The translations under genes were made by a program, and so were the position numbers. The notes under the pieces were generated by a model that worked only from the letters and a program-made list of their open reading frames with translations, was not told the DNA's origin and ran no database searches. 56,071 nt of DNA from Candidatus Kaiserbacteria bacterium (GTDB lineage Bacteria > Patescibacteriota > Minisyncoccia > Phycocordibacterales > UBA918): contig JACQKD010000003.1 of assembly GCA_016204695.1 (NCBI GenBank), positions 1 to 56,071 on the forward strand, read 5' to 3'. Each line of letters starts with the position of its first letter. Position 1 is the stretch's first letter. Of the stretch, positions 10,543 through 56,071 are shown piece by piece.

Positions 10543-11523
10543 TTACAATGAAAAATGAGTGATGGCGTAGAGATCCGCGTCCTCTTCTTGTTCTTCACGC
10601 GACCGATCGTCGACGATCCCTTCCGCTTCCGCCGCAGAAGTGTCCTCTTGCGCCGAGGCTGTTTCCCCTCCGGCATCCTTTTCTTCCGCAAGAATAAGCG
10701 AGAGTATCTTCCGAAGGTCGTCCGGAGTGAAATAGTCGATGACGAGCTTGCCGCCGAAATCCTTGCGCTCGATCTGCACGCGCGTCCCGAGCGACTCGGT
10801 AAGCTGACGCTCCATCTCAATGAGCTCCGGATCAACGCCGTAATCCTTCTTTCGCACGCGATCGACAGCAATCTTGCGCGAGATCCGCTCCACCTCGCGG
10901 ACAGACAATTTTTTCAGAAGTATTTCCTTGAATACCGTCTCCATTTCCTCGTCTCTGCCGGTGAGCATCAACAGCGCTCTGCCGTGACCTTCGGTGATCT
11001 GTCCTCCGCGCACCGAGTCAAGCATATGTTGCGGTAGCCCGAGAAGCCGGACCGAGTTGGATACATATTCGCGGCTACGCCCCACTTTCGCCGCCACTTG
11101 GGTGAACGAGAGGTTGAATTTGTCGGCGAGCTGTCGGAACGCTTCGGCACGATCGACGGGATTGAGATCCTCACGCTGGAGATTTTCGATGATCGCGAGT
11201 TCGAGCTTCATCAGATCGCTCTCTTCACCGGTGCGAATGATGACCGGAAGTTGGGAAAGGCCCGCGAGCTTGGCGGCGCGAAGACGCCGCTCTCCGGCGA
11301 TCAGCTCATATTCCGTACGGAACGTCCCGTCTTCCCGCCCGATTTCTTTGCGCGTCACGGTCACCGGCTGAAGCAGGCCGTACATTCGTATGGACTCGCT
11401 CAACTCTTTCAGCTTTTGTTCGTCAAACTCGCGCCGCGGCTGATACGGATTGGGAACGATCTTTTGAATCTCAACCCAAAAAATAGAATCGCCTTGGTAC
11501 GCCATTGGTGCGTATTGTAGCAT
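10543..11523 (-). CDS. parB: Chromosome partitioning protein ParB/Spo0J
   Basis: IVPNPYQPRREFDEQKLKELSESIRMYGLLQPVTV and ELIAGERRLRAAKLAGL are ParB box motifs, and an HTH follows. No parA gene is adjacent. Confidence 0.9.
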   Translation of the reverse strand: MLQYAPMAYQGDSIFWVEIQKIVPNPYQPRREFDEQKLKELSESIRMYGLLQPVTVTRKEIGREDGTFRTEYELIAGERRLRAAKLAGLSQLPVIIRTGEESDLMKLELAIIENLQREDLNPVDRAEAFRQLADKFNLSFTQVAAKVGRSREYVSNSVRLLGLPQHMLDSVRGGQITEGHGRALLMLTGRDEEMETVFKEILLKKLSVREVERISRKIAVDRVRKKDYGVDPELIEMERQLTESLGTRVQIERKDFGGKLVIDYFTPDDLRKILSLILAEEKDAGGETASAQEDTSAAEAEGIVDDRSREEQEEDADLYAITHFSL

Positions 11524-11568
11524 ATGCCATTTGAGCGCAAAGAAAAATGTTGTACACTCACCGGAGTC

Positions 11569-11650
11569 GCCCGGGTGGCGGAACTGGTATACGCGTACGA
11601 CTCAAAATCGTATGTCGCAAGGCATGTGGGTTCGATTCCCACCCCGGGCA
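11569..11650 (+). tRNA. tRNA-Leu (anticodon CAA), long variable arm, no encoded CCA
   Basis: Hand-folded. Acceptor GCCCGGG/CCCGGGC; anticodon stem TACGA/TCGTA with loop CTCAAAA; variable arm TGTCGCAAGGCAT; T arm GTGGG-TTCGATT-CCCAC. Confidence 0.9.
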
Positions 11651-11879
11651 CAGCAAAAGAGCGGAGTGATTTTGCTGTGCCCGGGAGGAAGCGCGGGGCG
11701 CTTCCGTGTGGGAATCGAAACCCGATTGAGCATTTTCTGTAGCACTTTGTGCGAACAGAAAATCCAATCGGGGTACTGCTCCTGTATACTTCGCTCTCTG
11801 GCACGGCACTCGAAGTTTGTGAAAGCAAAGCTTTCCCAACTTCTCGTTTGTACCAGTAAGGAGCGATCCCACCAGGACA
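11651..11879 (+). repeat. tRNA-Leu(CAA)-anchored pseudo-tRNA module
   Basis: TGTGCCCGGG is the complement of the tRNA 3' end. It is followed by hairpin ggaagcgc-gggg-cgcttcc, GT, GTGGGAATCGAAA, the long hairpin cccgattgag...caatcggg, GTACTG, a CTCCTGTA...TAAGGAG hairpin split by about 70 nt, and CGATCCCACC. Confidence 0.8.
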
Positions 11880-11927
11880 TCAACAAAAAGGGACAGGTGG
11901 ATTCTGTCCTTTTATGTCGCGCAAATA

Positions 11928-12608
11928 CTACAATTTCAACAGTAGCATCTGCGACTCTCCGTCGAGACAGCCGTCCGAATCGAGTCCTTGATTGAGCATT
12001 TGTTGTTCGGAGGCCGCAGGAATAGTGTTTGCGTTGCTGTAGTCACCCTGCACGCCGATATACATGCCCGCAGGCACCGTACATCCATACCGCCCAGCTC
12101 CGGTACCCCAATAGTTGTAATCATATTCACCTCCCCACGGTGTCGCCCCCGGCCATACGGAAAGATAAGGACCCCGCCAGCGCGCCTGCGCCTGCGCGAC
12201 CCAATCAGAAGGACAGTGGGCGCACGCGCCACAACTTCCCGGAGTCAGGTTGCAGTCCACTCCGGCATCAGGATTGTACGGAAGCGCTTTTGCAAGTCCC
12301 GGGTCCCACCCCCGACCGACATCGGGAGGATAAAATCCCATGTCGTCATAATACAGCGCAAGCGCGCGTTCCATCTGCCGCTGTGTCTGTACGCTCGCCG
12401 CAATTCGCCCCTTATCTCGCGCGGAGTTAAGCGACGCCATCACCACCGACGCAAGCAGGCCGATAATCGCAATGACAACAAGGAGCTCAATAAGAGTGAA
12501 ACCGCTTCGCGGTTTCACTCCGGCAGCAGTCGGACAAAATGTATGTGAACACCCACTTTGCTCCTCGTTTGTCGGAGTGAAGCCTCTTTTTGACCGCATT
12601 GCCTGCAT
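11928..12608 (-). CDS. Type IV pilin/pseudopilin-like protein (prepilin N-terminal cleavage/methylation motif)
   Basis: GFTLIELLVVIAIIGLLASVVMASLNSARDKGR is the class III signal and hydrophobic helix. The leader is unusually long if the ATG at 12608 is used, so the start is uncertain. Confidence 0.8.
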   Translation of the reverse strand: MQAMRSKRGFTPTNEEQSGCSHTFCPTAAGVKPRSGFTLIELLVVIAIIGLLASVVMASLNSARDKGRIAASVQTQRQMERALALYYDDMGFYPPDVGRGWDPGLAKALPYNPDAGVDCNLTPGSCGACAHCPSDWVAQAQARWRGPYLSVWPGATPWGGEYDYNYWGTGAGRYGCTVPAGMYIGVQGDYSNANTIPAASEQQMLNQGLDSDGCLDGESQMLLLKL

Positions 12609-12639
12609 TATAACAGGCAGAGCGGTCGATCAACGGCTA

Positions 12640-13251
12640 TTAGAGCTTCCCGACGAGATCAAGCCCCGGCGTGAGTGTCTCTCCGCCTTCCTCCCAGCTC
12701 GCGGGACAGACCGTACCCGGATTGTCGAGCGCGTGTTTTGCCGCTCTGAACTTGCGCAATGTCTCTTTCCCTGATCGGCCGACAGCATCGTCGTTGACCT
12801 CAAGTGTTTTTATCACCCCTTCCGGACTGATGATGAACGTTCCGCGGTGCGTGATACCCTTCTCGGCAATAAGCACTCCGAAGAGATCGGAGAGCTCATG
12901 CGCCGGATCAGCCGCCATCGGGAAGCTGACTTTCTTCACCATTGCTGACGTATCATGCCATGCTTTGTGGACGTGCACCGTATCAGTCGAAACCGACACG
13001 ATTTCCGCGCCATCTTTTTTAAACGTCTCATAGAGATCCGCCATCTCACCGAGCTCCGTCGGACAGACGAAGGTGAAATCGGCCGGATAGAAAAAGAGTA
13101 TGGTCCACCCGCCACGCAGATCCTTGAAACTCATCTGTCTGATCCGATCTTCGTGGTATACCTCAAAACCGATCTCCTCCGGCACAACATCGCCAACAGT
13201 GAGCGGCGACCATATGTCATCGAGTGTATCGTCTGTATGTGTATCCGTCAT
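12640..13251 (-). CDS. Peroxiredoxin (AhpC/TSA, 2-Cys type)
   Basis: FFYPADFTFVCPTELGE is the peroxidatic Cys motif, and a C-terminal VCPASW resolving Cys region is present. Confidence 0.9.
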   Translation of the reverse strand: MTDTHTDDTLDDIWSPLTVGDVVPEEIGFEVYHEDRIRQMSFKDLRGGWTILFFYPADFTFVCPTELGEMADLYETFKKDGAEIVSVSTDTVHVHKAWHDTSAMVKKVSFPMAADPAHELSDLFGVLIAEKGITHRGTFIISPEGVIKTLEVNDDAVGRSGKETLRKFRAAKHALDNPGTVCPASWEEGGETLTPGLDLVGKL

Positions 13252-13265
13252 GCCTCTATGCTACC

Positions 13266-14174
13266 ATGGCCGCACCTATGCGTACAAAGCTCAAGAAAAT
13301 CGTTGCGATCGTCGGCCCGACCGCTTCGGGAAAGACCGCCTTGGCCATCACACTGGCAAAGCAGTTTGATGGAGAAATCGTCTCCGCCGATTCCCGACAG
13401 GTATACCGCGGACTCGATATCGGTACCGAAAAGATCACCATGAGCGCGAGAGACGGCGTGACCCATCACCTCATCGACATCGCCGACCCGCGCGAGGTGT
13501 ATACCGCCGCCGACTTTCTCCGAGACGCGTCTGCGGCAATCGCCGACATCGTCTCGCGCGGCAAGCTCCCCGTCGTCGCCGGAGGCACGTTTTTCTACGT
13601 CGATGTCCTTCTTGGCAACCGCTCCGTCGCGGACGTGCCTGCCGATCCCGTGTTGCGCTCCGAACTTGAAACACTATCCGTCGAAACCTTGTACCAAAAA
13701 CTTCTCGCGCTCGATCCCGAATACGCCGAACACGTTGACCGGCATAATTCGAGACGACTCGTCCGCGCAATCGAAATCGCCGCCGCAAAAGGCCGGATGC
13801 CTGTCGGTACGGTAACCCGAAGATATGACGCATGCGTCATCGGTATCGATATGCCAACCACGATATTGCGCGAGCGCACCGAGAGGCGCCTCGATGCGAC
13901 CCTCGGTGCCGGTCTCGTCGAAGAAACCAAAAAACTGCTCGCCGAGGGCGTGCCCGAAGAGCGGCTCGAAGAGATCGGCCTTGAGTATCGCGTCGTACTC
14001 GCGTATCTTCGCGGCGAATACGCCCGTGAGGAAATGCGTACGGTCCTTGCACAAAAAATTTGGCAATACGCAAAGCGCCAGCTGACCTGGCTGAAGAAAA
14101 TGAAGGGTGTGCAGTGGGTACTTTCTTCAGAGCCAGAACAAGCCTGGGAACTCGTGAAGAATTTTATCTCGTGA
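13266..14174 (+). CDS. miaA: tRNA dimethylallyltransferase
   Basis: The P-loop IVGPTASGKTALAITLA is followed by IVSADSRQVYRGLDIGTEKIT. I chose the ATG at 13266 so the gene does not overlap the divergent peroxiredoxin gene. Confidence 0.9.
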   Translation: MAAPMRTKLKKIVAIVGPTASGKTALAITLAKQFDGEIVSADSRQVYRGLDIGTEKITMSARDGVTHHLIDIADPREVYTAADFLRDASAAIADIVSRGKLPVVAGGTFFYVDVLLGNRSVADVPADPVLRSELETLSVETLYQKLLALDPEYAEHVDRHNSRRLVRAIEIAAAKGRMPVGTVTRRYDACVIGIDMPTTILRERTERRLDATLGAGLVEETKKLLAEGVPEERLEEIGLEYRVVLAYLRGEYAREEMRTVLAQKIWQYAKRQLTWLKKMKGVQWVLSSEPEQAWELVKNFIS

Positions 14175-14192
14175 TAGGATTACCCATGTTTA

Positions 14193-14263
14193 GGGCAATT
14201 AGTTTAGTGGTAGAACGTCGGTCTCCAAAACCGATAACGGGGGTTCGATTCCCTCATTGCCCG
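14193..14263 (+). tRNA. tRNA-Trp (anticodon CCA), no encoded CCA
   Basis: Hand-folded. Acceptor GGGCAAT/ATTGCCC; anticodon stem TCGGT/ACCGA with loop CTCCAAA; T arm GGGGG-TTCGATT-CCCTC. Confidence 0.9.
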
Positions 14264-14267
14264 CAAA

Positions 14268-14309
14268 ATGAAACACCAGACGCTTCTGCGTCTGGTGTTT
14301 CATTTCTTG
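14268..14309 (+). terminator. Rho-independent terminator after tRNA-Trp
   Basis: A 16 bp stem, atgaaacaccagacgc-ttct-gcgtctggtgtttcat, is followed by ttcttg. Confidence 0.7.
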
Positions 14310-14445
14310 CGATGGCGTGGGAAGATCGAAAAGCGGAAAAAACAGTCTGGGGGACTGTTTTCGAGCTGGGGTCGCAAGCATTTAGTTTTTGCGAATACTT
14401 GGAGCAAAAACTAAATGGCTCGTGACCGATTCCCTCATTGCCCGC
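14310..14445 (+). repeat. tRNA-Trp-anchored module (type with GGAAAAAA-hairpin core)
   Basis: It reads GTGGGAAGATCGAAAAGCGGAAAAAACAGTCTGGGGGACTGTTTTCGAG...GGCTCGTGACCGATTCCCTCATTGCCCGC. The last 19 nt (14427-14445) are an exact copy of the tRNA-Trp end at 14246-14264. Confidence 0.8.
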
Positions 14446-14474
14446 CGAGCGTAACAATTTTCCCTCAGGAAAAA

Positions 14475-15032
14475 CTACGGGAGCTTCACGCTACCCGGGC
14501 AAGAACTGAAACCAAGATTCTGTCCTTCATAAAATTGATTTACATACGTTGTTGCGCCAATAGAGTAATTGAGAGTACAGAGCGCCATAGTATCAATACC
14601 TAGCCGTTCCATAAGGAATCGCTCTGCGGCAAGACGATTATTGCGAAGCGGTTCTTCCAGTGTGATGTTGAATAGATCATGCGGTCTGTCGTAATCAATA
14701 CTGAAACCACTTACCTTCGCACCGGAAGGACAGCTACCATCGCCAAGGCAATATCCCAGTGAACCCGCTAAAATATAGTGTGTAGGATTGACAGTATCTT
14801 GAATTGTCTCGCCATTGCTTATGAAATCCTTTACGATGATTTGTGATCCGTTACTTCCCTTGATCTGCATCGACGGAGTGCTCACTGGAGGCAAAACGGG
14901 ACCATCAGGAACAGGTAACGACACCGGTTGGTCAGGTACTTGAGGGTCTTTATCTCCCCAAAAAGTAGTAGCGAGGACAACGATGAGCACCACGAGAATA
15001 ACTATCCCTATTATAATGATTGCCTTTTTCAT
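14475..15032 (-). CDS. Hypothetical membrane-anchored protein
   Basis: The N-terminal TM segment is MKKAIIIIGIVILVVLIVVLATTFW. A Pro-rich linker and a Cys-containing extracellular domain follow. GC is lower than in the neighbours. Confidence 0.6.
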   Translation of the reverse strand: MKKAIIIIGIVILVVLIVVLATTFWGDKDPQVPDQPVSLPVPDGPVLPPVSTPSMQIKGSNGSQIIVKDFISNGETIQDTVNPTHYILAGSLGYCLGDGSCPSGAKVSGFSIDYDRPHDLFNITLEEPLRNNRLAAERFLMERLGIDTMALCTLNYSIGATTYVNQFYEGQNLGFSSCPGSVKLP

Positions 15033-15058
15033 ATCTTAGCGAATATTGTATCACTCTT

Positions 15059-16120
15059 TTATATATTCAATGTCCGAATGCACCGAGCCTGCGCAGAGGA
15101 TCGAGAATCCGCCGTCCACGCACTAAAGGAGCCTTTGTTTTGTTTCAAAAGACATGCAGCTGCGGACGCATTGCAGGTAAAGTTGCTCGCAGCGGCTTCG
15201 CAGGCCCGCCCAAGTTCTTGCCTATCGGGACGCATCGAACCGCCCCGATATGCAGTCGAACAATTTAAATTTCCTGAAATATTATATCCAGCCGCTTGCG
15301 CTGCAGCCGTACAGACCGGAAGATTTAGACTATGACAATCATCAGACAATCCGAGTACAACCTGAAATACACCTCGGGCAGATGTCTCCTTCCCATCGGG
15401 CGTTCGAGGGATGCCCGGGTTGTTTCTACAACGACTTTCCGGGATGGATAAGCATGAAAACGTGCGCGCCTGCGCTTCAGTCAAACTATATCCCCCTTGT
15501 TGTGCCGCCGCCTGGATATTTTGTGGATTGCAGTCCGCCATCTGAAGCGGTGCGTTATTGGGCGCTGATGTCTGACTCACAGGAGTCCCCGTCTGTGAGC
15601 CGGTTCCGGTTGCCGGCGCATCCGACGGCGGTTTGTTCGGCGGCAATTCGACGCATTTGATCTCATTCCAGAATCCAAAGTTATCTTTCATGGCTTTGTA
15701 GAGCTCGCTTCCTTCCCCTTCTTTATTTCCCTGGAACGCCCATTTCATGACCGTATCTATGACGAGCCACCCGGCAAGCGTAATAACGAGGCCGAGAAGT
15801 ACGTTCCAGAACATGCCCTTCGCTTTGGTCACCTGTCCTTCGTTGCCGGCGGCCGTCATCATCAAAAAACCCGCCCATGCGAAGATTGCGACCGCGATAG
15901 ACGAGGCGATAATAACGAGAAAGTTGATAATCCGTTGTCCGAGCTCGACCGCGTGGCAGATCTGACAGACGGGATACGGCATCGTGCCGATCGTCTCCGC
16001 TACGCCACTGCATGGCACCAGAGAACTCTCCGCAAATGAAAAAGCGGGGAGAGCAAAAACGATGCCGATCGCCAGTACTAGAAATGTCCCCCGCATAGAT
16101 ATTGGTATTGCTTCCATCAT
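15059..16120 (-). CDS. Pilin-like two-TM domain (TrbC/VirB2 or T4SS-pilin type) fused to a Cys-rich C-terminal domain with a lytic-transglycosylase-like motif
   Basis: A signal-like MMEAIPISMRGTFLVLAIGIVFALPAFSFA begins the protein. FLVIIASSIAVAIFAWAGFLMMTAAGNEGQVTKAKGMFWNVLLGLVITLAGWLVIDTVM resembles the small pilin-like proteins at 29807-31388. A P/T/S linker follows. The C-terminal IPES...TSARGVFQVVLG recalls the ES...GLMQ motif of SLT domains. Confidence 0.55.
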   Translation of the reverse strand: MMEAIPISMRGTFLVLAIGIVFALPAFSFAESSLVPCSGVAETIGTMPYPVCQICHAVELGQRIINFLVIIASSIAVAIFAWAGFLMMTAAGNEGQVTKAKGMFWNVLLGLVITLAGWLVIDTVMKWAFQGNKEGEGSELYKAMKDNFGFWNEIKCVELPPNKPPSDAPATGTGSQTGTPVSQTSAPNNAPLQMADCNPQNIQAAAQQGGYSLTEAQARTFSCLSIPESRCRNNPGIPRTPDGKETSARGVFQVVLGLSDDCHSLNLPVCTAAAQAAGYNISGNLNCSTAYRGGSMRPDRQELGRACEAAASNFTCNASAAACLLKQNKGSFSAWTADSRSSAQARCIRTLNI

Positions 16121-16246
16121 ACGGATTACTGCCCGCTTGCCAAGCCGGTAATGCACTGTTCGAGTTTTCAACGCAGAGAGACAATGTCTTGCTGTTGATA
16201 AAAACAGGCACACAAAATCGCTCCTCGCACACGAGCCGAGGAGCGA

Positions 16247-16654
16247 TTATTTTCTCTTGAAGATAGCAGGGGTGCATCTGACAATTATAATTGTAGTGAC
16301 TCCCTGCATGATCAAGAGAGCATATGCCGACAACATGCCAAGCCACTCAACGAGAAAAAACAGGCCCAGCATGATGAGAAGCTGATTCGCAAAATGTAGG
16401 ACGAAATGCGCCACTACTTGCCTTCGTATCCTCCCACTGCTCTTAAATGTCCATAAGCGATGGAGTGAAAAGTTTATGATCCAATAGACCATAAAATTCA
16501 CCATCGACGCTGTTTGGTAGTGCATACCAAGGTTGACGAGCACCACGTATACAACATATGCCACGCCCGTGCTCACCCATCCGGCCAGCAACATTCGCGG
16601 CGTGGAAAATCCGAGAACGTTCGGAAGCCGCATCTTCCTGCCCCTCCTAAGCAA
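16247..16654 (-). CDS. GtrA-family membrane protein
   Basis: There are four TM segments, and INFSLHRLWTFKS is the typical GtrA motif. Confidence 0.75.
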   Translation of the reverse strand: MLRRGRKMRLPNVLGFSTPRMLLAGWVSTGVAYVVYVVLVNLGMHYQTASMVNFMVYWIINFSLHRLWTFKSSGRIRRQVVAHFVLHFANQLLIMLGLFFLVEWLGMLSAYALLIMQGVTTIIIVRCTPAIFKRK

Positions 16655-16734
16655 AGAACTTTTTTGCTATGCGTATCCAGCGTGGAAAACGCATCGCTAT
16701 ACAATACACGCAATAGAAATTGTGGGAACTTCCG

Positions 16735-16920
16735 GGTAGGATTCCACTCTTGCAGGATTAGTACAGGTTTCGTATCGCGCTCGTAAATTAATTGGGCAGG
16801 ATTCGAAACTTACAGTTTCAGTACAGGTTTCGTATCGTACTCGCCTCTGCTTCGCTCCGGCTCCGTGCGATATACTCAACCTCTTCGAATCCTGCACGAA
16901 AGCTTCGCTTTCTCCGGCGC
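16735..16920 (-). repeat. tRNA-Tyr-anchored module plus a decayed partial second copy
   Basis: The minus strand reads TGTGCGCCGGA, gaaagc-gaa-gctttc, GT, GCAGGATTCGAAG, AGGTTGAGTATATCGCACGGAGCCGGAGCGAAGCAGAGGCGAGTACGATACGAAACCTGTACTG, GAAACTGTAAGTTTC, GAATCCTGCCC. 16794-16807 is an exact copy of 16965-16978 in the tRNA. Confidence 0.8.
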
Positions 16921-16959
16921 ACATTTTAAAAACGCCCAGTTTGGGCGTTTTTAAAATGT
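16921..16959 (-). terminator. Perfect 18 bp palindromic hairpin immediately 3' of tRNA-Tyr (bidirectional terminator-like)
   Basis: The structure is acattttaaaaacgccca-gtt-tgggcgtttttaaaatgt. Confidence 0.6.
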
Positions 16960-17042
16960 GCGCCGGGCAGGATTCGAACCTGCGTAGCCCGTAGGGCGAC
17001 AGATTTACAGTCTGTTGCGATTGACCACTCCGCCACCGACGC
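16959..17042 (-). tRNA. tRNA-Tyr (anticodon GTA), long variable arm, no encoded CCA
   Basis: Hand-folded on the minus strand. Acceptor GCGTCGG/CCGGCGC (one G-U pair); anticodon stem ACAGA/TCTGT with loop CTGTAAA; T arm GCAGG-TTCGAAT-CCTGC. Confidence 0.88.
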
Positions 17043-17126
17043 ATTTTCAATCCACAAGGACGCTATCACCGTATCATATGCGTACGTATCAGTGAAGCGC
17101 AAAAATACGCGCGAGCCGCAAAATCT

Positions 17127-17155
17127 CTTGACATTGGAGCTGATCTGTAGTATCT
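17127..17155 (+). promoter_or_regulatory. Sigma70-like promoter (TTGACA, 17 nt spacer, TATCTT)
   Basis: TTGACA lies at 17127-17132 and TATCTT at 17150-17155. This would give a roughly 230 nt leader ahead of the DEAD-box helicase gene. Confidence 0.45.
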
Positions 17156-17388
17156 TATGATCAACTTGAGATTCTCGTGTAGGGCTCTTGAGCTGCGAAC
17201 AGGCTGAAAATACAGATTGATTCGGTTATATACCTGCACACAAGACCCTAAGTGTGTTCAAAAATCCTCCAGATGCGAGGCGCTGAGGAGTGAAAAACTG
17301 AGGCGTACTTTGTTGTACGATGAAGTTTTGAACGACAAAAGCAACGAAGCAGATGGAGATTTTGGGACATACGTAAAATATACACTAC

Positions 17389-18693
17389 ATGAACTATACC
17401 CATACCCGACCAAGTCGGTCACCTTCTCGTCGGAGAAGTTATTCACCGTCAGCACGACCTTCGTACCATAACAACCGTCCCCGAAGCAATCATTCGGATC
17501 GAGCAAACGACCGGAGCCGCTCCCGAGATGGCGGTCGTCGTGCCTTTTCAAGCGCTCCTCGCCAAAGCGGCCGCGGGGGACGCAAGACAAGCGCCTTCGA
17601 CGTCTCGCAGTTTATCAACCGAAATCCTGCGCCCCGCGTCGTCGAGGAGGCGTACGTCCCGAAGCATCGCTTCGAAGATTTCAATCTTCCGGCGCCGCTC
17701 CTTGCCGCCATCAAGGCCGCACGGATTGACGCGCCGACACCTATCCAAGACGAGATTATCGAGCATATTCTCGTCGGACGCGACGTCGTCGGTCTTGCGA
17801 ATACCGGCACCGGAAAAACCGCCGCGTTTCTCATTCCGCTCATTACTCGTACACTACAATCTCCGAAACACCAGACCTTGATTCTCACGCCGACGCGCGA
17901 GCTCGCAATCCAAATCGAGCAAGAATTACGGAAGCTTTCCGCCGGCATGCACCTGTACTCGACGACCGTCGTCGGCGGGGCAAACATCCGTCCGCAGATC
18001 GAAAGTCTCAGACGGAAGAATCACTTCATCGTCGGCACGCCCGGACGCGTCCAAGACCTTATCGATCGCCGCGCCTTGCGCACCGACGGCATTTCGACAG
18101 TCGTCCTCGACGAAGCGGACCGCATGCTCGACATGGGATTCATCCACGCGATGAAGCGGATTCTTAAAGACATTCCCGCCGGACATGAGACACTCTTCTT
18201 TTCGGCGACAATGTCAAAAAATATCGAAGTGCTCATTCACGACTTCCTCCGCGACCCGATCGTCATCTCCGTGAAAAAACAGGACATCACTTCAAACATT
18301 GAGCAGGACGTGATCCGGTGCGTCGGAAAAGATAAATTCTCAACACTTGTCGACCTTTTGAAACAGGAAAGTTGCACCCGTGTCTTGCTTTTCGGTGCGA
18401 TGAAGCACAGTGTTGAAAAGCTTGGGAAACAGCTCAATGTTGCCGGCATCCCCGCCGAATCGATTCACGGCAATAAATCGCATCCCCAACGCCAGCGCGC
18501 CCTGAAACGTTTTAAGGACGGACAGGTCAAGGTACTGGTCGCCACCGACGTCGCTTCACGCGGCATCCATGTCGACAACGTCTCGCACGTCATCAATTAC
18601 GATCTCCCGACCACGTATGAAGACTACGTCCACCGCATCGGCCGCACCGGTCGAAGCCAAAACAGCGGCAAAGCACTGACATTCGTCGAATAA
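17389..18693 (+). CDS. DEAD-box ATP-dependent RNA helicase with Arg/Ser-rich N-terminal extension
   Basis: The Q-motif region is FEDFNLPAPLLAAIKAARIDAPTPIQ. Also present are motif I ANTGTGKTAAF, VLDEADRMLD (DEAD), SAT and HRIGRTGR. Confidence 0.93.
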   Translation: MNYTHTRPSRSPSRRRSYSPSARPSYHNNRPRSNHSDRANDRSRSRDGGRRAFSSAPRQSGRGGRKTSAFDVSQFINRNPAPRVVEEAYVPKHRFEDFNLPAPLLAAIKAARIDAPTPIQDEIIEHILVGRDVVGLANTGTGKTAAFLIPLITRTLQSPKHQTLILTPTRELAIQIEQELRKLSAGMHLYSTTVVGGANIRPQIESLRRKNHFIVGTPGRVQDLIDRRALRTDGISTVVLDEADRMLDMGFIHAMKRILKDIPAGHETLFFSATMSKNIEVLIHDFLRDPIVISVKKQDITSNIEQDVIRCVGKDKFSTLVDLLKQESCTRVLLFGAMKHSVEKLGKQLNVAGIPAESIHGNKSHPQRQRALKRFKDGQVKVLVATDVASRGIHVDNVSHVINYDLPTTYEDYVHRIGRTGRSQNSGKALTFVE

Positions 18694-18712
18694 AAACTGC
18701 ATCGCAGTCACC

Positions 18713-18752
18713 AAAAAACCGCCCTGCGCCTCTTGGCGCGGGGCGGTTTTAT
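18713..18752. terminator. Bidirectional terminator between the convergent helicase and clpB genes
   Basis: The structure is aaaaaa-ccgccctgcgcc-tctt-ggcgcggggcgg-tttt. Confidence 0.75.
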
Positions 18753-18758
18753 ATGTGA

Positions 18759-21485
18759 TCAGATCACCGCAACCGGTTCTTTTTTCTCAACCTGCGTCTT
18801 GGTTTGTTTTTCGGTCTGCGATGTCGGCATTTTGCGCTTGCGACTACCTTTTTTCTTGACGTCGAAAGTAAACTGGCCGTTTTTCATTCCCACCGAGACC
18901 GCCCCGCCCTGCAACATGCCCTCGCCGACCATCATGCTGGCAACCGGTGTGAGAATCTTCGACTGGATGAGTCGCTTGAGCGGTCGTGCGCCGAACTTGG
19001 GATCGTATCCTTGTGCCGCGAGATATTCGAGCACTTCGTCCGAAACCGTGAGCTCGATTTCCTTGACGCGCAGTCGCTCCCGCACCATTTCCACCTGCAT
19101 CCCGACGATCTTCCTTATCGTTTCCTTGGAAAGAATGTCGAAGACGATCACCTCATCGAGACGATTGAGGAATTCCGGACGGAAATACTGCTTCAACGAT
19201 TCCATCACTTTGTCCTTGGCGTGCGCGTATTGGGTTTCTTCGTCACGCGTCTTCGAGAAGCCGAATTGCGACATGCGGTCGATGTGTTCCGCTCCGATAT
19301 TCGACGTCATGACAATGACGGTATTTTTGAAATTGACCTTGCGGCCTTTCGCATCGGTAAGGTGTCCGGAGTCGAGCACTTGAAGCAGGATATTGAACAC
19401 TTCAGGATGCGCCTTCTCGATCTCGTCAAGAAGAATGACCGCATACGGACGATGCCGCACGAGCTCGGTGATCGCGCCGCCTTCTTCATATCCGACATAT
19501 CCCGGCGGCGAACCGATGATTTTCGAAACCGAGTGTTTTTCCATATATTCGGACATGTCGATGCGTATGAGCGCCCGTTCATCGTCGAACATAAACGCCG
19601 CGAGCGCCCGCGACAGCTCGGTTTTCCCGACACCGGTGGGACCCAAAAAGAGAAACGAACCGATCGGACGATTCGGGTCGGCAATACCTGCGCGCGAGCG
19701 TTTGACCGCGTCCGCAATGAGTGTCACCGCCTTGTCCTGGCCGACGATTCGTTCCCGGAGGTGCTCTTCCATGCGGGCGAGTTTTGAGGCCTCTTCTTCA
19801 AGCATGCGCGCGACCGGTATGCCCGTCCACTGCGATACGACAGCCGCGATGTCTTCTTCCGTCACCTCTTCTTTCAACAGGCGGCGGCCATGCTGGAGCT
19901 TCTTGAGCTTCGCTGTTTTCTGTTCAAGGTCTCGTTCAAGTTTCGGAATGAGCGCATACCGTATCTCGGCCGCGCGCGGATTATCCGCCCTCGCTTCCGC
20001 AGACTCCGCTTCAAGCCGAAGCCCTTCGAGTTCTTTTTTCATGCCTCGCATGCCGTCGAGCGCATCCTTCTCGTTGTTCCATTTGGTTTCGAGTGCGGCT
20101 GTTTTTTCTTTCAGTTCCGCAATTTCGGCGTCGATGTCTTTTATACGCTGTGCGTGTTTCCGTTTGTTGATCTCGGATTCCTCCTCTTTTTTCAACGCCT
20201 CTTTCTCTATTTCGAGCCGGCGAATCTTGCGGTCGGCCTCTTCGAGTTCCGGTGGTTTGTTCTCAAGCGAAATGCGGAGGGCGGAAGCGGCTTCGTCGAT
20301 GAGGTCCACCGCTTTGTCGGGAAGGAAACGATCGGAGATGTACCGCGAAGAGAGATTGACGGCGCTCATGATGGCATCGTCGGTGATGCGTACGCCGTGA
20401 AAGATTTCGTATTTCTCCGCAAGGCCGCGCAAGATGGCGATTGCGTCCTCCTGCGAGGGCTCGTTGACGTAGACCGATTGGAAACGGCGTGTGAGGGCGG
20501 GATCGCGTTCGATGTGCTTTTGATATTCTTTCAACGTCGTTGCGCCGATGACGCGAAGCTCTCCGCGAGCAAGCGCGGGCTTCAGCATGTTGGACGCGTC
20601 CATGGCTCCCTCGGCGCCGCCGGCACCCACGATCGTATGCAATTCATCGATAAAAAGGATGACGTTGCCTTCGGCCTGTTCCACTTCTTTCATAATGGCC
20701 TTGAGGCGGTCTTCGAACTCGCCGCGAAACTTCGTGCCGGCGATCAAAAGACCGAGATCAAGCGAAAGCAATTCTTTCTGCTTCACCGAATCGGGCACCG
20801 CGTTTTGCGCAATGGCGATGGCGAGTCCTTCGGCGACTGCGGTCTTGCCGACACCCGCCTCGCCGATGAGCACCGGATTGTTTTTCGTGCGGCGAGAAAG
20901 TATCTGAATTACGCGCTGGATTTCCGCATCGCGGCCGATCACCGGATCGAGCTTGTTCTCCTGCGCAAGCTTGGTGAGATTTCTGGTGTATTTCGCAAGC
21001 GCGCGGAATTTCTTCGGATGCGTGACATCCTGCACATTCTTTTCGCGCATTTCTTTCAGTGTCGCGAGTACCTGACGCTTGTCGATGCCGGCGCGCTGGA
21101 TGATCTCGACGGCCGGCCCCGGATGCTCAAGTACCGCAAGAAAGAGATGCTCGACGCCGATGTATGAGTCTCCCAAGTCTTGGGCGATGCGTCCCGCATA
21201 TTCGAGAGCCGAGGCAAGATCAGGCGTGAGGTAGAGTTGGTACGAGGGAGAAATAGTCTGGCCGATTTCGGACCCCTCAAGCCCCTCCAGCACCATATCG
21301 GTAAGGACAATAACATCCACATCGATCCGATCGAGAATGGAGATCACGGCCGTCTCTTCTTGCATGACAAGAGCGGCAAAAAGGTGTACGGGGCTGACAT
21401 GATTCTGTCCTCGCTCAATGGCGAGTTCATGCGCCTTACGCACCGCTTCTTTCGCTTTTGAAGTAAAACTTGCAAATGGTGGCAT
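18759..21485 (-). CDS. clpB: ATP-dependent chaperone ClpB
   Basis: The Clp N domain starts [39 protein letters not shown]1 has [10 protein letters not shown], a long coiled-coil M domain follows, and NBD2 has [11 protein letters not shown] trimmed the start to the ATG at 21485. Confidence 0.95.
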
Positions 21486-21579
21486 ATATACAGAACAGTA
21501 TACAAAACGGCCGTGACAATGCAACTATTCTGAACATCAGTCAAGAGAATAGACTTGCCTGCCGCCCTTAAGTATACCT

Positions 21580-22773
21580 CTACAAAGCCATCTTGGGAGT
21601 ATTCGCATGTTCAGAAAGCGCCATGGCGACATGAACAAGGTCTTCCCGAGTCGTCTCTTCTCCAAGGGTGAAGCGGATGGTGTTGCCCGCGCGGTCGGCG
21701 TCATGGGTGATGGCCGCGACAACGTGCGAGCCGCTGCCTTTTCCTCCGGCGCATGCGCTCCGGGTAGACGCGGCAATGCCGTGAGTATCGAGCGTGACAA
21801 CCGCAAACTCGCCGTCGATGCCCGGGATAGAGATGTTGCAGTTATTTGCGACGCGATGCTCGCGCGAGCCGTTTATGAGTACGTTTGGAATTTTCTCCTC
21901 CAATGTTTTGAAAAAGAAGTCACGGAGCGCGCCGACTTTGTCGGCGCGCTCTTCGTAGTTTTCTTGCGCAATATGCAACGCCTCCGCGCAACCGACAATG
22001 AGCGGCACGTTTTCGGTGCCGGCTCGTAAGCCGCCCTCTTGGTCTCCACCGAAAGACTGCGAGCGAAGCGGCACATGCCGCTTGTGCGCGAGCACACCGG
22101 CCCCTTTGGGGCCGTAGCATTTCCCCGCATCAAGCGTCATGAGGTCGACGCCGAGTGCATCCATCGCACACGGGAGCCACAGCGGCGCCTGGCTTGCATC
22201 GAGATGTATAAAAACTTTCCGACCTTCGGCGCTTTTTCTTTCATACTCACGCACGGTGCGCACGACACGCTTCACGTCCTCAACGACGCCAACTTCACTG
22301 TTGACGTATGCAAATGTAACGAGCAGTGTCTTTGGCGAAAGCAGTGTTTCAAATCCGCGCATGTCGATGCGACCTTCTTCCGTCACGGGCGCAAGACGTA
22401 CACCGACCCCGCGCTTTTCGAGCACATCAAGCGCTTCAAGTACGGACGGATGTTCAATCATCGTACTGATAACTTCTATGTCTTTCGGATGTGCACCGCC
22501 TGCGACCGCGGCTTCGACAACTCCGAAAAGAGCAAGATTATTCGCTTCGGTGCCGCCGCTCGTACACGTCACTTCTTCAAGACGAATCTTGAGAAGCTTC
22601 GCGACAATTGCCCGCGCGGCCTCGACGGCCGCGCGGGCAACGCGCCCTTCTTCATGTATCGCACTTGGATTTGCGAACCGTTCGGAAAAATACGGTTGCA
22701 TGGCGGCAAACACTTCAGGTCGCACGGGCGTCGCCGCCGCGTAGTCGAGGTAGATTCGATCAGATGCGTGCAT
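21580..22773 (-). CDS. Cysteine desulfurase (NifS/IscS-like class V aminotransferase)
   Basis: It contains MHASDRIYLDYAAATPVRPEVFAAMQPYFSERFANPSAIHEEG, the PLP-Lys region DAGKCYGPKG, and the active-site loop STRSACAGG. The 592 aa track ORF is over-extended, so I used the ATG at 22773. Confidence 0.9.
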   Translation of the reverse strand: MHASDRIYLDYAAATPVRPEVFAAMQPYFSERFANPSAIHEEGRVARAAVEAARAIVAKLLKIRLEEVTCTSGGTEANNLALFGVVEAAVAGGAHPKDIEVISTMIEHPSVLEALDVLEKRGVGVRLAPVTEEGRIDMRGFETLLSPKTLLVTFAYVNSEVGVVEDVKRVVRTVREYERKSAEGRKVFIHLDASQAPLWLPCAMDALGVDLMTLDAGKCYGPKGAGVLAHKRHVPLRSQSFGGDQEGGLRAGTENVPLIVGCAEALHIAQENYEERADKVGALRDFFFKTLEEKIPNVLINGSREHRVANNCNISIPGIDGEFAVVTLDTHGIAASTRSACAGGKGSGSHVVAAITHDADRAGNTIRFTLGEETTREDLVHVAMALSEHANTPKMAL

Positions 22774-22923
22774 AACAATAGTAGAACCTACCGCAACATA
22801 CGCCGCAATGCAACGCTGTTCCCCCCGATAGAAAGAAAAGGCACTCTGTGCTATAGTACTGCCACTCTTTCGCACTCCCCTGCATAAGCAGTGAGCTCTG
22901 CGGCTCAAGCGATTTTTTGCAAT

Positions 22924-24417
22924 ATGGCTAACGCATCGCACAACTCCAATAGTGTACCCCGGCCGCCGATCGTGGTGGTTATGGGTCATATCGACCACGG
23001 TAAGTCGACCTTGCTTGACTATATCCGCAAAACGAACGTTGTCGAAGGAGAGGCCGGCGGTATCACTCAGCGCCTTTCGGCGTATGTGGTCGAGCATACG
23101 ACCAAGGAAGGAGAGACAAAAAAGATCACCTTCCTTGATACGCCGGGCCATGAAGCATTCCAAAAGATGCGTCTGCGCGGAGCGGATGTCGCGGATGTCG
23201 CCATCCTCGTCGTATCGGCGGAAGACGCCGTTATGCCGCAAACACTCGAAGCTCTCGCATCCATCAAAACGGCATCTATTCCCTATATCGTCGCCATCAA
23301 CAAAATAGACAAGCCGAGCGCCGACATCGCGCGGACACAGGCGAGCTTGATCGAGCATGAAATCTATATCGAAGGCATGGGCGGCGATGTCCCTTGGGTC
23401 GCCATTTCCGCAAAAGTCGGTACGGGCGTGGCCGAGCTTCTCGATGTCCTTCTGCTTGCCGCCGAGCTTGCTGAACTCAAAGGTGACGAAAACGCTTCAG
23501 CTTCCGGCAAGGTGATCGAAGCGCACCTCGACCAAAAGCGCGGTACGCACGCCACACTCCTTATCACCGATGGCAGACTCAAAGGCGGCCAGTATGTCGT
23601 ATCCGGACGCAGTATCGCGCCGGTACGCATCATGGAGGACTTCCGCGGCAAGTCGATCAAAGAAGCCGGGCTTTCCGAGCCGGTCGGCGTCGTAGGATGG
23701 AACAGTGTCCCCAAAGTCGGCGCGCGCTTTATGTCCGTGGCTTCGAAAAAAGAAGCCGAAGCGGCGGCGACAGAGGACGTGACGCTTGCATCCGCGGAAC
23801 AATTCGATCCGTCCTTGCCGCTTATCCCCATCCTCGTCAAAGTAGACCGCCTCGGCACCGGCGAAGCCATAGAACATGAGCTCGGCAAACTGAAATCCGA
23901 ACGGGTACAGGTGCGCGTAATCGACAAACGCGTCGGTTCGATCACCGCAAGCGACGTCCAAAACATACAGGCGACCGATCATGCGATCATTGTCGGTTTC
24001 AACGTGCCGGTCGAGCGCGGCGCGGCGGATCTCGCCGAACGCCTGGGCGTTGAGATTAAGACATTTTCCGTCATTTACGAACTTTCCGAATGGCTCGAAG
24101 CCGCGATCAAAGCTCGTACTCCCGAAACCGAAGTCGAGCGCCGTACCGGCCGCGCGAAAATACTGAAAACATTCAGTGTGCAGAAAAACGTGCAGGTGCT
24201 CGGCGGTCGTGTCGAAGAAGGGATGCTTGCGGTTGGCAATCCTGTTAAGATCACGCGCCGAGACATGGAGATCGGCAGAGGAAAAGTACAAAATCTTCAA
24301 CAGCAAAAGGCGGACGTGCAGTCGGTGTCGACTGACGAGTTCGGCATGCAGATTTCCTCGACGACCGAAATCGCCGCCGGCGATTATATCGAGGCGTTCA
24401 CCATAGAAACCGTATGA
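22924..24417 (+). CDS. infB: Translation initiation factor IF-2 (short form without the long N-terminal region)
   Basis: The G domain shows [45 protein letters not shown] and NKID. The domain II and C-terminal domain layout is present. Confidence 0.93.
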
Positions 24418-24752
24418 GCTTGCAACGCATGGGCCGTGTCAATTCCCTCTTGCGCGAGCTTGCGGCCACCTTCATCGCAGATGAGGCAAACCCGTCGCCG
24501 CTCATTACGGTGATCGCCGTGGAAACCACTCCCGATCTGAAACAGGCAACCGTACTGGTATCCGTGTTTCCCGAAGCGCAAGAACATGAAGCGCTCACAT
24601 TCCTCAAACGTAAAGGAAGCGACCTTCGGGGGTTCGTAAAGCAAAAGGTCAATCTCAAAGATATTCCTTTCTTCGAATTCAAGATCGACTATGGTGAAAG
24701 AAACCGACAGCAGATCGACCGTATTTCAAACGAACAAAAGGGACAAGCATAA
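24414..24752 (+). CDS. rbfA: Ribosome-binding factor A
   Basis: RMGRVNSLLRELAATFI...ITVIAVETTPDLKQATVLVSV is RbfA-like. The gene overlaps the infB stop by 4 nt, which is the classic infB-rbfA order. Confidence 0.85.
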   Translation: MSLQRMGRVNSLLRELAATFIADEANPSPLITVIAVETTPDLKQATVLVSVFPEAQEHEALTFLKRKGSDLRGFVKQKVNLKDIPFFEFKIDYGERNRQQIDRISNEQKGQA

Positions 24753-24799
24753 GCGGTATTTGCCCTCCGGGTGTTGTCGTGTAGTATCATGGTGGTTGC

Positions 24800-24871
24800 G
24801 GCCTGGTGGTGAAGAGGTAACACAGGAGTCTGCAAAACTCCCACGCGCGGGTTCGATTCCCGCCCAGGCCT
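24800..24871 (+). tRNA. tRNA-Cys (anticodon GCA), no encoded CCA
   Basis: Hand-folded. Acceptor GGCCTGG/CCAGGCC; anticodon stem GGAGT/ACTCC with loop CTGCAAA; T arm GCGGG-TTCGATT-CCCGC. Confidence 0.9.
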
Positions 24872-25330
24872 CACGAAGTGAACAGAGTGAACGAGTGGGG
24901 CCTGGAGCAAGTGCCCTACGGCACTTGCGTGCGGGAATCGAAGAGGTTGAGTATATCGCGCGGAGCCGGAGCGAAGCAGAGGCGAGCACGATACGAAACC
25001 TGTACTGATCCTGTAAGGATCGATCCCGCCCAGGCCTCAAAGAGAGCGTAGCGAACGTAGAGGATTGGGCGGGAATCGAAAGCCGGAAAAAAGATGCTGG
25101 GAGCATCTTTTTGAGGCGGGGATGAAAAGCAAACTGCTTTGCTTTTCATCCGATTTCGACCGAAGGGAGAAATGCGCCACTGTCGAGCGAAGCGAGGCGG
25201 GCGCAAGGAGGACGAGAGCGCTTAGTATAAATGTGAGCGGAGCGAAACATTTTACTTAGCGACTCGTGACCGATTCCTTACAGAAACCGTATACCTTGCG
25301 AAGCTCCAAGTATTCACTTCTCCCCACAAC
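24872..25330 (+). repeat. tRNA-Cys-anchored cassette: two modules plus an abutting inverted fragment
   Basis: Module 1 (about 24896-25039) ends in cccgcccaggcctca, an exact copy of 24859-24873. Module 2 (about 25066-25273) carries the 190 nt core that is also found at 27141-27329. 25274-25330 reads as a minus-sense fragment of the orphan repeat type. Confidence 0.85.
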
Positions 25331-25377
25331 AAAAAAGACCCTGCCCAGGGTCTTTTTTGTTCAGAGGATACTCAAAA

Positions 25378-26399: not shown

Positions 26400-26494
26400 A
26401 AACGTCCGTTCATTACCACAGTATACTCCGGTACCGCACTCCGACACCCGTCATTTTCCACTTTTTCCGCTTTTCGACTCCCGCGACCTTGAGC
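26400..26494 (-). repeat. Partial module downstream of tRNA-Leu(UAA)
   Basis: The minus strand reads GCGGGAGTCGAAAAGCGGAAAAAGTGG...GTATACTG. This has a T-stem-like 5' strand, TCGAAAAGCGGAAAAA as in the Trp module, and the RTACTG motif. No matching 3' frame was found. Confidence 0.45.
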
Positions 26495-26538
26495 AACATA
26501 AAAAGAGTACGGTTAGAAAACCGTACTCTTTTTATGTT
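26495..26538. terminator. 18 bp hairpin terminator 3' of tRNA-Leu(UAA)
   Basis: The structure is aacataaaaagagtacgg-ttagaaaa-ccgtactctttttatgtt. Confidence 0.7.
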
Positions 26539-26799: not shown

Positions 26800-27345
26800 C
26801 TTGGAACGGAGTGGAAAGTCCGCCTGGAGCGTGCGAACTGCTTCGCTCGCGTGGAGGATTTGAAGACCTCGAGTATATTTTTGAAAAGCTCTGCTTTGAA
26901 AAAATACGAAAGGTGTACCGTTCCTGTAAGGAAAGAACCCTTCCAGGCGGACACGGAGCGTAGCGGAGTGTCCGCCTGAGAAAGCGCGGGGCGCTTTCGT
27001 GAAGGGCTCGAAGCCCGATTGAGCATTTTCCGGAGCGTTTGACGCGACGGAAAATGCTCAATCGGGATACTGCTTCTGTAAGAAGCGAGCTCTTCCATGC
27101 GGACTTGAACGAAGTGAAAGGACGGCTGGAAGGGCTCGAAAGCCGGAAAAAAGATGCTGGAGCGTCTTTTGAGGTGGGGATGAAAAGCAAACTGCTTTGC
27201 TTTTCATCCGGTTTCGACCGAAGGGAGAAATGCGCCACTGTCGAGCGAAGCGAGACCGGCGCAAGGAGGCCGAGAGCGCTTAGTGAATGTGAGCGGAGCG
27301 AAACATTTTACTTAGCGACTCGTGACCGAGCCCTTCCATGCGGAC
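26800..27345 (+). repeat. tRNA-Lys-anchored cassette of three tandem modules
   Basis: The modules are at 26818-26952, 26970-27104 and about 27120-27345. Each ends in (c)cttcca(g/t)gcggac, a copy of the tRNA-Lys 3' end. The three inserts belong to three different shared families. Confidence 0.88.
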
Positions 27346-27473: not shown

Positions 27474-27835
27474 CAGATTTGAACACAGTGAAAAGCTGTG
27501 GGGGAATGAAGCACATCTTTTGCGAAGCAAAAGATGTAGGACTCGAAGACCGTGCGAGATAGTTTGGAGCGCGAAGCGCGAACAAAATATCCACACGGTG
27601 TACTGAACATGTAATGTTCGAGTCCCTCCTTGCCCACAAAATAAGGAGAAAAGGCAAAGCGTTTTCGACTATATTTTGTGAGACAAGAAGGGACGAGAAC
27701 GGCGGAGGCGGTACACAAGACGACGAGCTTGCGAGAAGTGCTTGTCGCCGAGCCGTGACCCGCGGCGCTTATGAGCGAAGTGCAATGAAGCGAATTAGTG
27801 ACCGTCAGGTCGAGTCCTCTCGTCTCCACCAAACC
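27474..27835 (+). repeat. tRNA-Leu(UAG)-anchored cassette (one intact module, one diverged)
   Basis: The module at 27497-27638 ends in a perfect 20 nt copy (27619-27638) of 27456-27475. A second, diverged unit ends ...GTGACCGTCAGGTCGAGTCCTCTCGTCTCCACC. Confidence 0.8.
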
Positions 27836-55963: not shown

Positions 55964-56071
55964 CAAGAATAACGGAGCAAATGCGGAGCATTTGTGGAGT
56001 ATATTCTTGGAGTGCCTACCGGGATGAGAAAGCCGGAGGCGGTATACAAGACGAGCGGAACGAAGTGGAGC
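55964..56071 (+). repeat. Start of a tRNA-His-anchored module (cut by the window end)
   Basis: GGAGTG is followed by CCTACCGGGA, the complement of tRNA-His TCCCGGTAGG. GCCGGAGGCGGTATACAAGACGAGCGGAACGAAGTGGAGC then matches the diverged unit at about 27700-27745. Confidence 0.6.

Follow-up and report, generated by a model that had tools for sequence, protein, structure and literature searches.

Short, hairpin-rich modules that lie behind tRNA (transfer RNA) genes in contig JACQKD010000003.1 of Candidatus Kaiserbacteria bacterium share traits with several kinds of described systems. The integrative elements and genomic islands of tRNA genes (attL/attR; sublocated in the T or anticodon loop) repeat the 3' part of the tRNA directly, starting inside the T loop, leave the tRNA intact and form tandem arrays split by copies of its tail; in the paradigm of Williams 2002 and Islander, such a direct repeat from the T loop is said to mark tRNA-integrating elements. 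The REP/BIME/REPIN sequences with RAYT and the IS200/IS605-derived PATEs are likewise small, protein-less, hairpin-rich, strand-specific, multi-copy and often nested, and are likely to act as a folded single strand. Palindromes resembling miniature inverted-repeat transposable elements (MITE-like; Rickettsia RPE, Neisseria Correia) are non-autonomous, fold into rods, are tolerated in frame inside genes and vary in presence among relatives. In integron attC/cassette arrays, imperfect hairpins alternate with cassettes and the recombination sites are read as folded single strands. Finally, tRNA-like minihelix RNAs (mascRNA, the tRNA-like domain of tmRNA, viral examples) set an acceptor on a T stem, carry a simple hairpin in place of the D and anticodon arms and are potential substrates of RNase P and RNase Z.

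The window (the whole stretch of DNA analyzed, 56,071 nt) is contig C10 of a 14-contig, 835-kb Patescibacteria genome with 45 tRNAs, 54% G+C and an estimated completeness of 96%; eight of the tRNA genes lie in the window according to ARAGORN and Rfam. Behind them we found a repeating unit, a-L-a'-P-a, which consists of the tRNA tail (a), a short loop or terminator hairpin (L), the inverted tail (a'), a payload (P) and a direct tail (a), and which occurs singly or in arrays of up to three. The payloads fall into few families, named A to E, common to different tRNAs and genomes, and the arms are specific to each locus. At 100-250 nt, the element is too small to encode a protein. About half of the 45 tRNAs of the genome are followed by at least a partial module, in tandem runs of up to three; all tRNA genes are intact and none is interrupted by a module. 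C74 is present in 45/45 tRNA genes, the discriminator being followed by CA, not CCA, in 31/45 and by CC in 8/45 (e.g. window 17042-16958 and 24800-24872). The direct tail copies mostly stop just past the CA that follows the discriminator.

The two arms were compared at 140 tRNA loci, comprising the present genome, two congeners and the tRNA-Tyr loci of 18 relatives. The tRNA segment used, 49-85, comprised the T arm, the 3' strand of the acceptor, the discriminator and 12 trailer nucleotides; it was aligned as such and reverse-complemented to the DNA up to ~900 nt downstream of each tRNA, a span in which an exact 10-nt match is expected by chance ~0.002 times per tRNA. The search recovered 57 direct and 43 inverted copies of the local T arm or 3' half, the inverted ones reaching the T arm. 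Read against the adjacent tRNA, the left flank complements it in reverse, from T-loop position 54/55 across the 3' T-stem strand and often on into the acceptor strand and trailer; the end falls exactly at position 54 in 32 of 43 inverted copies. On the right, the tRNA is truly copied in direct orientation, for the most part over positions 56 to 74/75: the commonest start is 56 (19/57, with 46/57 starting at 53-58) and the commonest end 74-75 (26/57). These boundaries at 54 and 56 hold regardless of the length of L, and are therefore set by the T loop and not by a ruler from L.

It had been pointed out in the original prediction that TTCGAA or TCGA flanks the insert on both sides in the Tyr, Cys, Leu-UAG and Trp modules, and that this may reflect a target-site duplication. 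All eight strings quoted are indeed in place (Table 1), and the native T arms are as given there, for example that of tRNA-Tyr. T-loop letters are thus real on both sides, but the left copy is a reverse complement and not a second direct copy. The decisive cases are the non-palindromic loops, which appear complemented at the left: TTCAAAT gives ATTTGAA, TTCAAGT gives ACTTGAA, TCCGATT gives AATCGGA, TGCGAAT gives TTCGCA, TTCGAGC gives GCTCGAA, TTCGAAC gives GTTCGAA and TTCGACT gives AGTCGAA. Among these seven loop types no direct copy of a non-palindromic loop was found in the left arm, and even the unusual base 55 of two tRNAs (TCCGATT, TGCGAAT) is mirrored there. Because an arm-based search is circular in this respect, 69 further copies were located in 12 other genomes by the payload motif TACYGNNNNTGTAAG alone; in the 39 first modules tested, an inverted 12-mer with at most two mismatches was present in 28, a direct 12-mer in one and a reversed control in none. 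Of the cases with a G-U pair in the T stem, five have a left arm that matches the complemented 3' strand, two one that matches the 5' strand and five one that matches neither; the module of tRNA-Arg-UCG (5' strand GTGGG, 3' strand CCTGC) carries GCAGG. In a left-arm variant, GAGAA replaces TCGAA and the inverted copy stops at position 59. Judged from these letters, TCGA on both sides is the appearance of an inverted copy with a self-complementary core, and no target-site duplication; the flanks resemble a duplication because TCGA is self-complementary.

An insertion into, or templating from, the T loop had also been proposed, and here the boundaries speak in its favor, being sharp inside the loop (inverted copies at 54, direct copies mostly at 56), although the true direct repeat is the ~20-nt tail 56-75 and not TCGA. 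We regard the idea as plausible rather than proven; it also fits the array behind tRNA-Lys. In this array, CGAGC persists as the loop version of modules 2 and 3, as it still does in the tRNA-Lys of the congener G003; TTCAAAT/ATTTGAA is common to the tRNA of the present genome and the left arm of module 1, and the copy after module 1 is followed by a trailer orthologous to that of the G003 tRNA-Lys. On sequence grounds the array is consistent with a T-loop insertion that would supply a new tail and displace the old one.

The inverted tail also complements the trailer of the upstream copy, with zero mismatches from 85 to 66 in the Tyr module, and a-L-a' is therefore one continuous long hairpin. 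When a'(i) was compared with a(i-1) or a(i), the upstream copy was favored by 186 to 13, a count that mostly reflects ascertainment bias, a' having been found by similarity to the tRNA; the usable observations are the trailer complement and positions 54-55. L takes the form of a terminator-like hairpin or of a short GAGCGAAGCGA-type loop, a motif that caps payload hairpins as well. The motif is present at 28 places in the 835-kb genome, 11 of them at most 900 nt behind a tRNA of the same orientation. The loop motif GAGCGNAGCGA, with the same count of 28 and with GCGAAGC in it, is borne by hairpin tips inside and outside tRNA modules. Modules of types A and B have a side hairpin, X, exactly between the complements of the acceptor strand and of the T strand, flanked by AG and (C)GT; its sequence is variable and it is always a hairpin. 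The stems of X and of two further hairpins, Y and Z, covary between copies. Conservation among copies is seen in the internal hairpins and in the TGTAA of the Z loop; the outer arms are host-derived and different at each locus.

In the predicted folds, pairing of the flanks adds 4-7 bp to the 5-bp T stem and closes a multi-helix junction that bears the payload. The suggestion that split halves of the T loop could pair to extend the T stem is thereby supported: the Tyr module is predicted to form a 12-bp helix (GCAGGAUUCGAA/UUCGAAUCCUGC), and the Cys module a 7-bp acceptor stem extended by flanking pairs, side hairpin X, a T stem extended through N60'N59'UC/GAN59N60 and two payload helices (z = -6.2). 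In type A/B payloads, the small hairpin Z would end with a pair between C56 and the G of the conserved GUACUG, leaving the left GAA in the junction. An ungapped test of left/right pairing was significant but weak, because right arms often bear one or two extra bases and X interrupts the left arm; in one subfamily these extra bases lie between A58 and the stem strand. No "empty" palindrome, with a' abutting a directly, was found. For the internal loop of type A, readings as hammerhead, kink-turn or sarcin-ricin motif were rejected, as inspection fits a tandem G-A loop only and Rfam gave no match. A scan for consensus promoters and terminators remained at chance level.

Table 1. Positions of the tRNA modules, their parts and their flank strings in the window.
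Feature	Position	Strand	Description	Basis
tRNA-Tyr (GUA)	16958..17042	-	T arm GCAGG-TTCGAAT-CCTGC, acceptor 3' strand CCGGCGC; tail 54-75 plus trailer is "a"	ARAGORN, Rfam, arm parsing
Tyr L and first part of a'	16914..16957	-	Terminator-like hairpin AAAAACGCCC-AAAC-TGGGCGTTTTT; descending arm runs on as exact trailer/acceptor complement (85 to 66, 16914-16933)	
Tyr side hairpin X and linkers	16896..16913	-	AG-AAAGC-GAAG-CTTTC-GT; between acceptor-strand and T-stem-strand complements, as in other type A/B modules	
Tyr left flank	16884..16895	-	GCAGGATTCGAA, reverse complement of tRNA 54-65 (T loop and 3' T-stem strand)	
Tyr payload P, type A	16811..16883	-	Long hairpin, tandem G-A/G-A internal loop (GAGUA...CGAA), GCGAAGC-containing apical loop	
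Tyr payload, 3' part			GTACTG, then 5' strand and TGTA of hairpin Z; Z 3' strand in 16794..16810	
Tyr right flank	16794..16810	-	AGTTTCGAATCCTGCCC, direct copy of T loop, 3' T-stem strand and first acceptor bases; ends after position 67	
Second Tyr module remnant, type A	16732..16793	-	Payload 3' third only and degenerate direct copy GAATCCTACCCGG	
tRNA-Cys module 1, complete tRNA-like frame	24873..25039	+	L, GGCCTGG, AG-X-CGT, GCGGGAATCGAA (24931-24942), type A payload, direct copy TCCCGCCCAGGCCTCA (25024-25039)	
tRNA-Cys module 2	25040..25275	+	Inverted copy 74 to 54 (25060-25080), type C payload ending CTCGTGAC, short direct copy CGATTCC	
Reversed truncated type B element	~25276-25330		Directly after Cys module 2; CTTACAGAAAC...GCGAAGCTCCAAGTATTC	
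tRNA-Lys-CUU array, three modules (A, B, C)	26801..27345	+	Modules 2 and 3 with CGAGC; tRNA/module 1 left arm TTCAAAT/ATTTGAA	
tRNA-Leu-UAG, two modules	27475..27830	+	Left flank AGGACTCGAAG 27538-27548, direct copy 27616-27638, then type D module	
tRNA-Trp module, type C	14265..14445	+	Terminator-like L, degenerate left arm GTGGGAAGATCGAA, direct copy 56-74 at 14427-14445	
tRNA-Leu-CAA module, type B	11652..11880	+	Inverted copies 11670-11685 and 11708-11722, insertion in Z loop, degenerate right arm CGATCCCACC	
tRNA-Leu-UAA partial module	26473..26538	-	Terminator-like L and left arm GGGAGTCGAA only	
Type D module after tRNA-His	55965..56071	+	Cut by window end; inverted copy 72 to 59, then GAGAA	
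Flank strings, Tyr module	left 16883-16895; right 16796-16808	-	left GCAGGATTCGAAG; right TTTCGAATCCTGC	
Flank strings, Cys module	left 24931-24943; right 25017-25029		left GCGGGAATCGAAG; right GGATCGATCCCGC	
Flank strings, Leu-UAG module	left 27538-27548; right 27616-27628		left AGGACTCGAAG; right GTTCGAGTCCCTC	
Flank strings, Trp module	left 14317-14333; right 14426-14436		left GTGGGAAGATCGAAAAG; right CCGATTCCCTC	

Several observations speak for mobility. The Tyr and Cys payloads are ~95% identical and differ at two positions that form a compensatory pair, and their arms differ. The tRNA-Gly-GCC is 100% identical in three congeners, and only the present genome has a module behind it; tRNA-Phe has one in all three, of a type that differs between the genomes and with arms that fit the local T arm. 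Some copies are truncated (the second Tyr module), nested (the Z loop of Leu-CAA) or reversed (after Cys module 2). Hairpin Z of Leu-CAA is split after TGTA by a ~85-nt insertion ending AGTA (window 11780-11866), which resembles a nested element in the loop, and a reversed piece similar to that after Cys module 2 follows the tRNA-Cys of the congener G003 (locus L027). One payload family, type A/B, is present in 48 of 61 relatives at 0-22 copies per genome, with 16 copies in the present genome.

About nine type B copies lie away from tRNAs. One of them lies, reversed and in frame, within the leader of a type IV pilin-like gene (G000 C2:34302-34470), and the 20-nt inverted repeat that flanks it consists of the first codons of that gene; as an empty/filled test this copy was uninformative, orthologous leaders being too divergent to tell the original flank. 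The layout a-L-a'-P-a was also found with type B elements where rplK ends, in three genomes from three families (L074 in G053, L090 in G048, L123 in G041), as the gene end with its stop codon, L, 8-10 inverted nt of the gene end, the payload and a direct copy of the gene end, by which the stop codon is duplicated. The rplK end of the present genome (C2 near 56617-56680) has neither the element nor the inverted copy, and the inverted copy therefore arrives with the element and does not pre-exist. Taken together, the rplK and tRNA layouts make duplication of the gene tail a general rule. A 5' gene part is duplicated in another genome (G039 C1:70120-71000, locus L092), where a type B element follows a copy of the first ~33 nt of tRNA-Glu and the complete tRNA-Glu lies ~57 nt downstream.

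There is a counter-example to local templating: in G049, a near-identical L, a' and P block lies behind both tRNA-Leu-CAA and tRNA-Leu-UAG (L117, L118), the a' fitting Leu-CAA only, which is best explained by ectopic recombination between modules. The long payload hairpin of Lys module 2 (window 26936-27107) is a perfect palindrome; other copies, with locus L027 of G003 as the comparison, keep a conserved asymmetric internal loop with GAGCA opposite CC. Such a palindrome suggests hairpin-templated correction. Empty sites were sought among relatives. The flanks of the congeners G001 and G003 are ~80% identical and all alignable loci are filled or rearranged; some genomes have empty Gly-GCC, Cys and Glu loci, but the intergenic DNA there is unalignable and exact junctions are unreadable. 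Population variants in four groundwater DNA runs were no clearer, contigs breaking at the repeats and joints coming from other organisms, and a metagenome scan with the tRNA-Lys promoter/5' junction gave no match in a collection from which near-identical genomes may be missing.

The modules have a strand-specific structure. Of 92 copies, 80 fold better as the tRNA-sense strand (mean difference -5.4 kcal/mol, p about 1e-11), which contains 324 G-U pairs against 16 A-C single mismatches, together with many G-G and G-A mismatches. A co-oriented tRNA lies at most 650 nt upstream in 42 of 69 copies and an opposed one in only two or three. A double-stranded palindrome is therefore ruled out as the functional form, and this strand specificity, compatible with RNA and with single-stranded DNA alike, does not separate the two. 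For RNA speak the tRNA-like layout and the placing of X at the junction of acceptor and T stem; for DNA speak the terminator-like L ahead of several modules, the many degenerate acceptor arms, the reversed and in-gene copies and the GCGAAGC loops. GCGAAGC is a motif known as an unusually stable DNA mini-hairpin. In Rfam searches, only the true tRNAs matched, and the modules gave no match at the gathering threshold or at E <= 5; nor did the E-value scan, which covered window positions 11400-28000, find on them any of the self-cleaving ribozymes known next to tRNAs (hammerhead, HDV-like/theta, twister and others).

No enzyme emerged as a candidate partner. The present genome has no match to PF01797 (Y1/HUH) or to PF00078 (RVT_1, reverse transcriptase), and its only recombinases are one tyrosine (contig C11) and one serine recombinase (contig C8, beside tRNA-Asn), neither near modules. 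The serine recombinase (C8:103467-103928, 512-aa frame) lies ~1 kb from tRNA-Asn (C8:104943-105017). Across the 61 genomes, the copy number of type A/B elements correlates weakly with Y1 matches (Spearman rho 0.28, p 0.03) and not with reverse transcriptase, and Y1 is absent from eight of the 28 genomes with at least five copies. An enzyme whose copy number follows the modules, as the original prediction had envisaged, was thus not found among Y1/HUH, reverse transcriptase and tyrosine or serine recombinases.

We lean, with some reserve, towards the view that the modules form a Patescibacteria family of mobile elements, non-autonomous and structured as single strands, which land behind a gene and duplicate its tail, and we infer the following mechanism. 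The active form would be a folded single strand, either single-stranded DNA or RNA, of an element that encodes no protein. The element would insert at the 3' end of a gene, which would be kept intact by duplication of its tail (for tRNAs, ~20 nt from inside the T loop). The inverted tail would be carried or synthesized by the element, for example by fold-back copying of a 3' overhang ending at a T-loop nick, and the enzyme would be supplied from outside. Several points weigh against this view: no candidate enzyme was found and none tracks the modules among the families searched; the G049 Leu blocks show that a' is not always templated locally; no clean empty/filled pair, from which the original direct copy and the timing of the tail duplication could be read, was found among the loci compared; no RNA run with the module sequence was found; and the covarying hairpin X placed exactly at the junction of acceptor and T stem, with its conserved AG and GT linkers in types A and B, looks designed for a tRNA-like RNA instead of arising incidentally when DNA is copied. 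The main rival is one in which the modules are functional tRNA-like non-coding RNAs, an a'-P-a minihelix of acceptor and T stem being freed from the tRNA precursor by RNase P and RNase Z, perhaps with the CCA-adding enzyme. The payload would then replace the T loop and have a function of its own, and the arms would match the neighboring tRNA since the modules arose from it. The Cys module fits this, with its full 7-bp acceptor stem, discriminator and CA, its extended T stem with the low z value given above and its AG-X-(C)GT linkers at nucleotide positions 8-9 and 46-48, as do the covariation of X, Y and Z between copies, the more structured sense strand with conserved purine-purine mismatches, the co-orientation with tRNAs and the many L loops without a T-run. 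It sits poorly with the terminator-like hairpins with T-run that precede the modules at Tyr, Trp, Arg-TCG, Phe and Leu-UAA, with acceptor arms that are degenerate or missing in many copies, that of the Tyr module included, and with copies that are reversed, truncated, in frame in a protein gene or at the end of rplK. The variable presence within the genus, the GCGAAGC apical loops, known as a DNA mini-hairpin, and the missing matches in Rfam and in RNA runs also count against it. We consider the RNA reading a possible but tentative one; it and the mobile-element reading are not mutually exclusive.

Other explanations appear less likely. The direct repeats may be of att type, small circles of the form [a-L-a'-P] entering the tRNA tail by Campbell-type recombination, with a site-specific recombinase acting in trans or by homologous recombination after DNA uptake, each replacement tail pushing the old one downstream so that arrays grow by accretion. 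The direct repeat that starts in the T loop is reportedly the classical signature of tRNA integration, tail copies do separate tandem modules, the old loop is distal and the new one in the tRNA in the Lys array, and the genome has one tyrosine recombinase and a serine integrase next to tRNA-Asn. Simple Campbell integration, however, cannot produce one payload behind different tRNAs with different arms, the elements, at 100-250 nt, carry no integrase, nothing in known att sites corresponds to the inverted copy and no recombinase copy number tracks the modules, which makes this explanation rather unlikely. More improbable still is an origin without mobility, from ancient local tandem or inverted duplications of each tRNA 3' half kept alike by gene conversion. 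The block transplanted between the two tRNA-Leu loci is consistent with ectopic conversion, and one payload hairpin has become fully palindromic, yet near-identical payloads occur at unrelated loci and in 48 of the 61 genomes, presence is polymorphic behind an identical tRNA, copies lie in protein genes and at rplK, and the Tyr/Cys pair already suggests that payload phylogeny is incongruent with host and tRNA identity. We give least credence to classical cut-and-paste or copy-paste transposition with a short TCGA target-site duplication, which was the main reading of the original prediction. TCGA or TTCGAA does occur at both junctions where the T loop is canonical, but the complementing of non-palindromic loops at the left junction already refutes a repeat, and the GAGAA variant at the left, the uninterrupted tRNAs and a genome without Y1/HUH transposase point the same way.

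Returning to the mobile-element reading, it is conceivable, though doubtful, that these are a new kind of mobile element which builds a tRNA-like minihelix from the tail of its host gene, with an inverted and a direct copy and a side hairpin at the junction of acceptor and T stem. Release or copying would then fall to universal tRNA enzymes recruited by such a frame, namely RNase P, RNase Z, the CCA-adding enzyme and perhaps a ligase, or to a recruited single-strand DNA activity of the host. If true, this recruitment would explain why the elements have no enzyme of their own and have spread through much of the Patescibacteria order sampled.

These findings have practical and general consequences. 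A search for a TCGA-specific transposase would be misdirected, because the "duplicated TCGA" is a palindrome effect of the inverted copy. Annotation of these genomes has to reckon with the pseudo-tRNA tails, the long hairpins and the in-frame insertions that the modules create, and with the breaking of assemblies at the modules. Elements without genes sit 3' of about half of the tRNA genes of an 835-kb genome that can ill afford junk, and fold-back copying or hijacked tRNA-processing enzymes, if true, would be a mobility strategy not described for bacterial repeats. Our literature search found no paper describing such elements, which are apparently undescribed so far.

The described systems differ from the modules in several respects. 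For REP sequences and PATEs, the ends are constant, whereas module arms are copied from the host gene at each locus; the present genome also lacks a Y1/HUH gene, and the copy-number correlation over the 61 genomes is weak. MITE-like palindromes have fixed terminal inverted repeats and short fixed target duplications, whereas the "inverted repeats" of the modules are the tail of the host tRNA and their direct repeat is ~20 nt long. In contrast to integrons, there is no IntI-type integrase context, and the stems copy the tail of the anchoring gene rather than cassette-borne sites. The hairpin repeats of Ssn/NTS, cut by a GIY-YIG single-strand nuclease (PMC11893778), offer a possible analogy only. 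Unlike the tRNA-like minihelix RNAs, the modules match no Rfam family, have the T loop replaced by a large insert and in many copies lack an intact acceptor stem. Finally, compared with the integrative elements of tRNA genes, they are only 100-250 nt long and carry no integrase, have an additional inverted tail, place one payload behind many tRNAs and are found at rplK and in a pilin gene as well.

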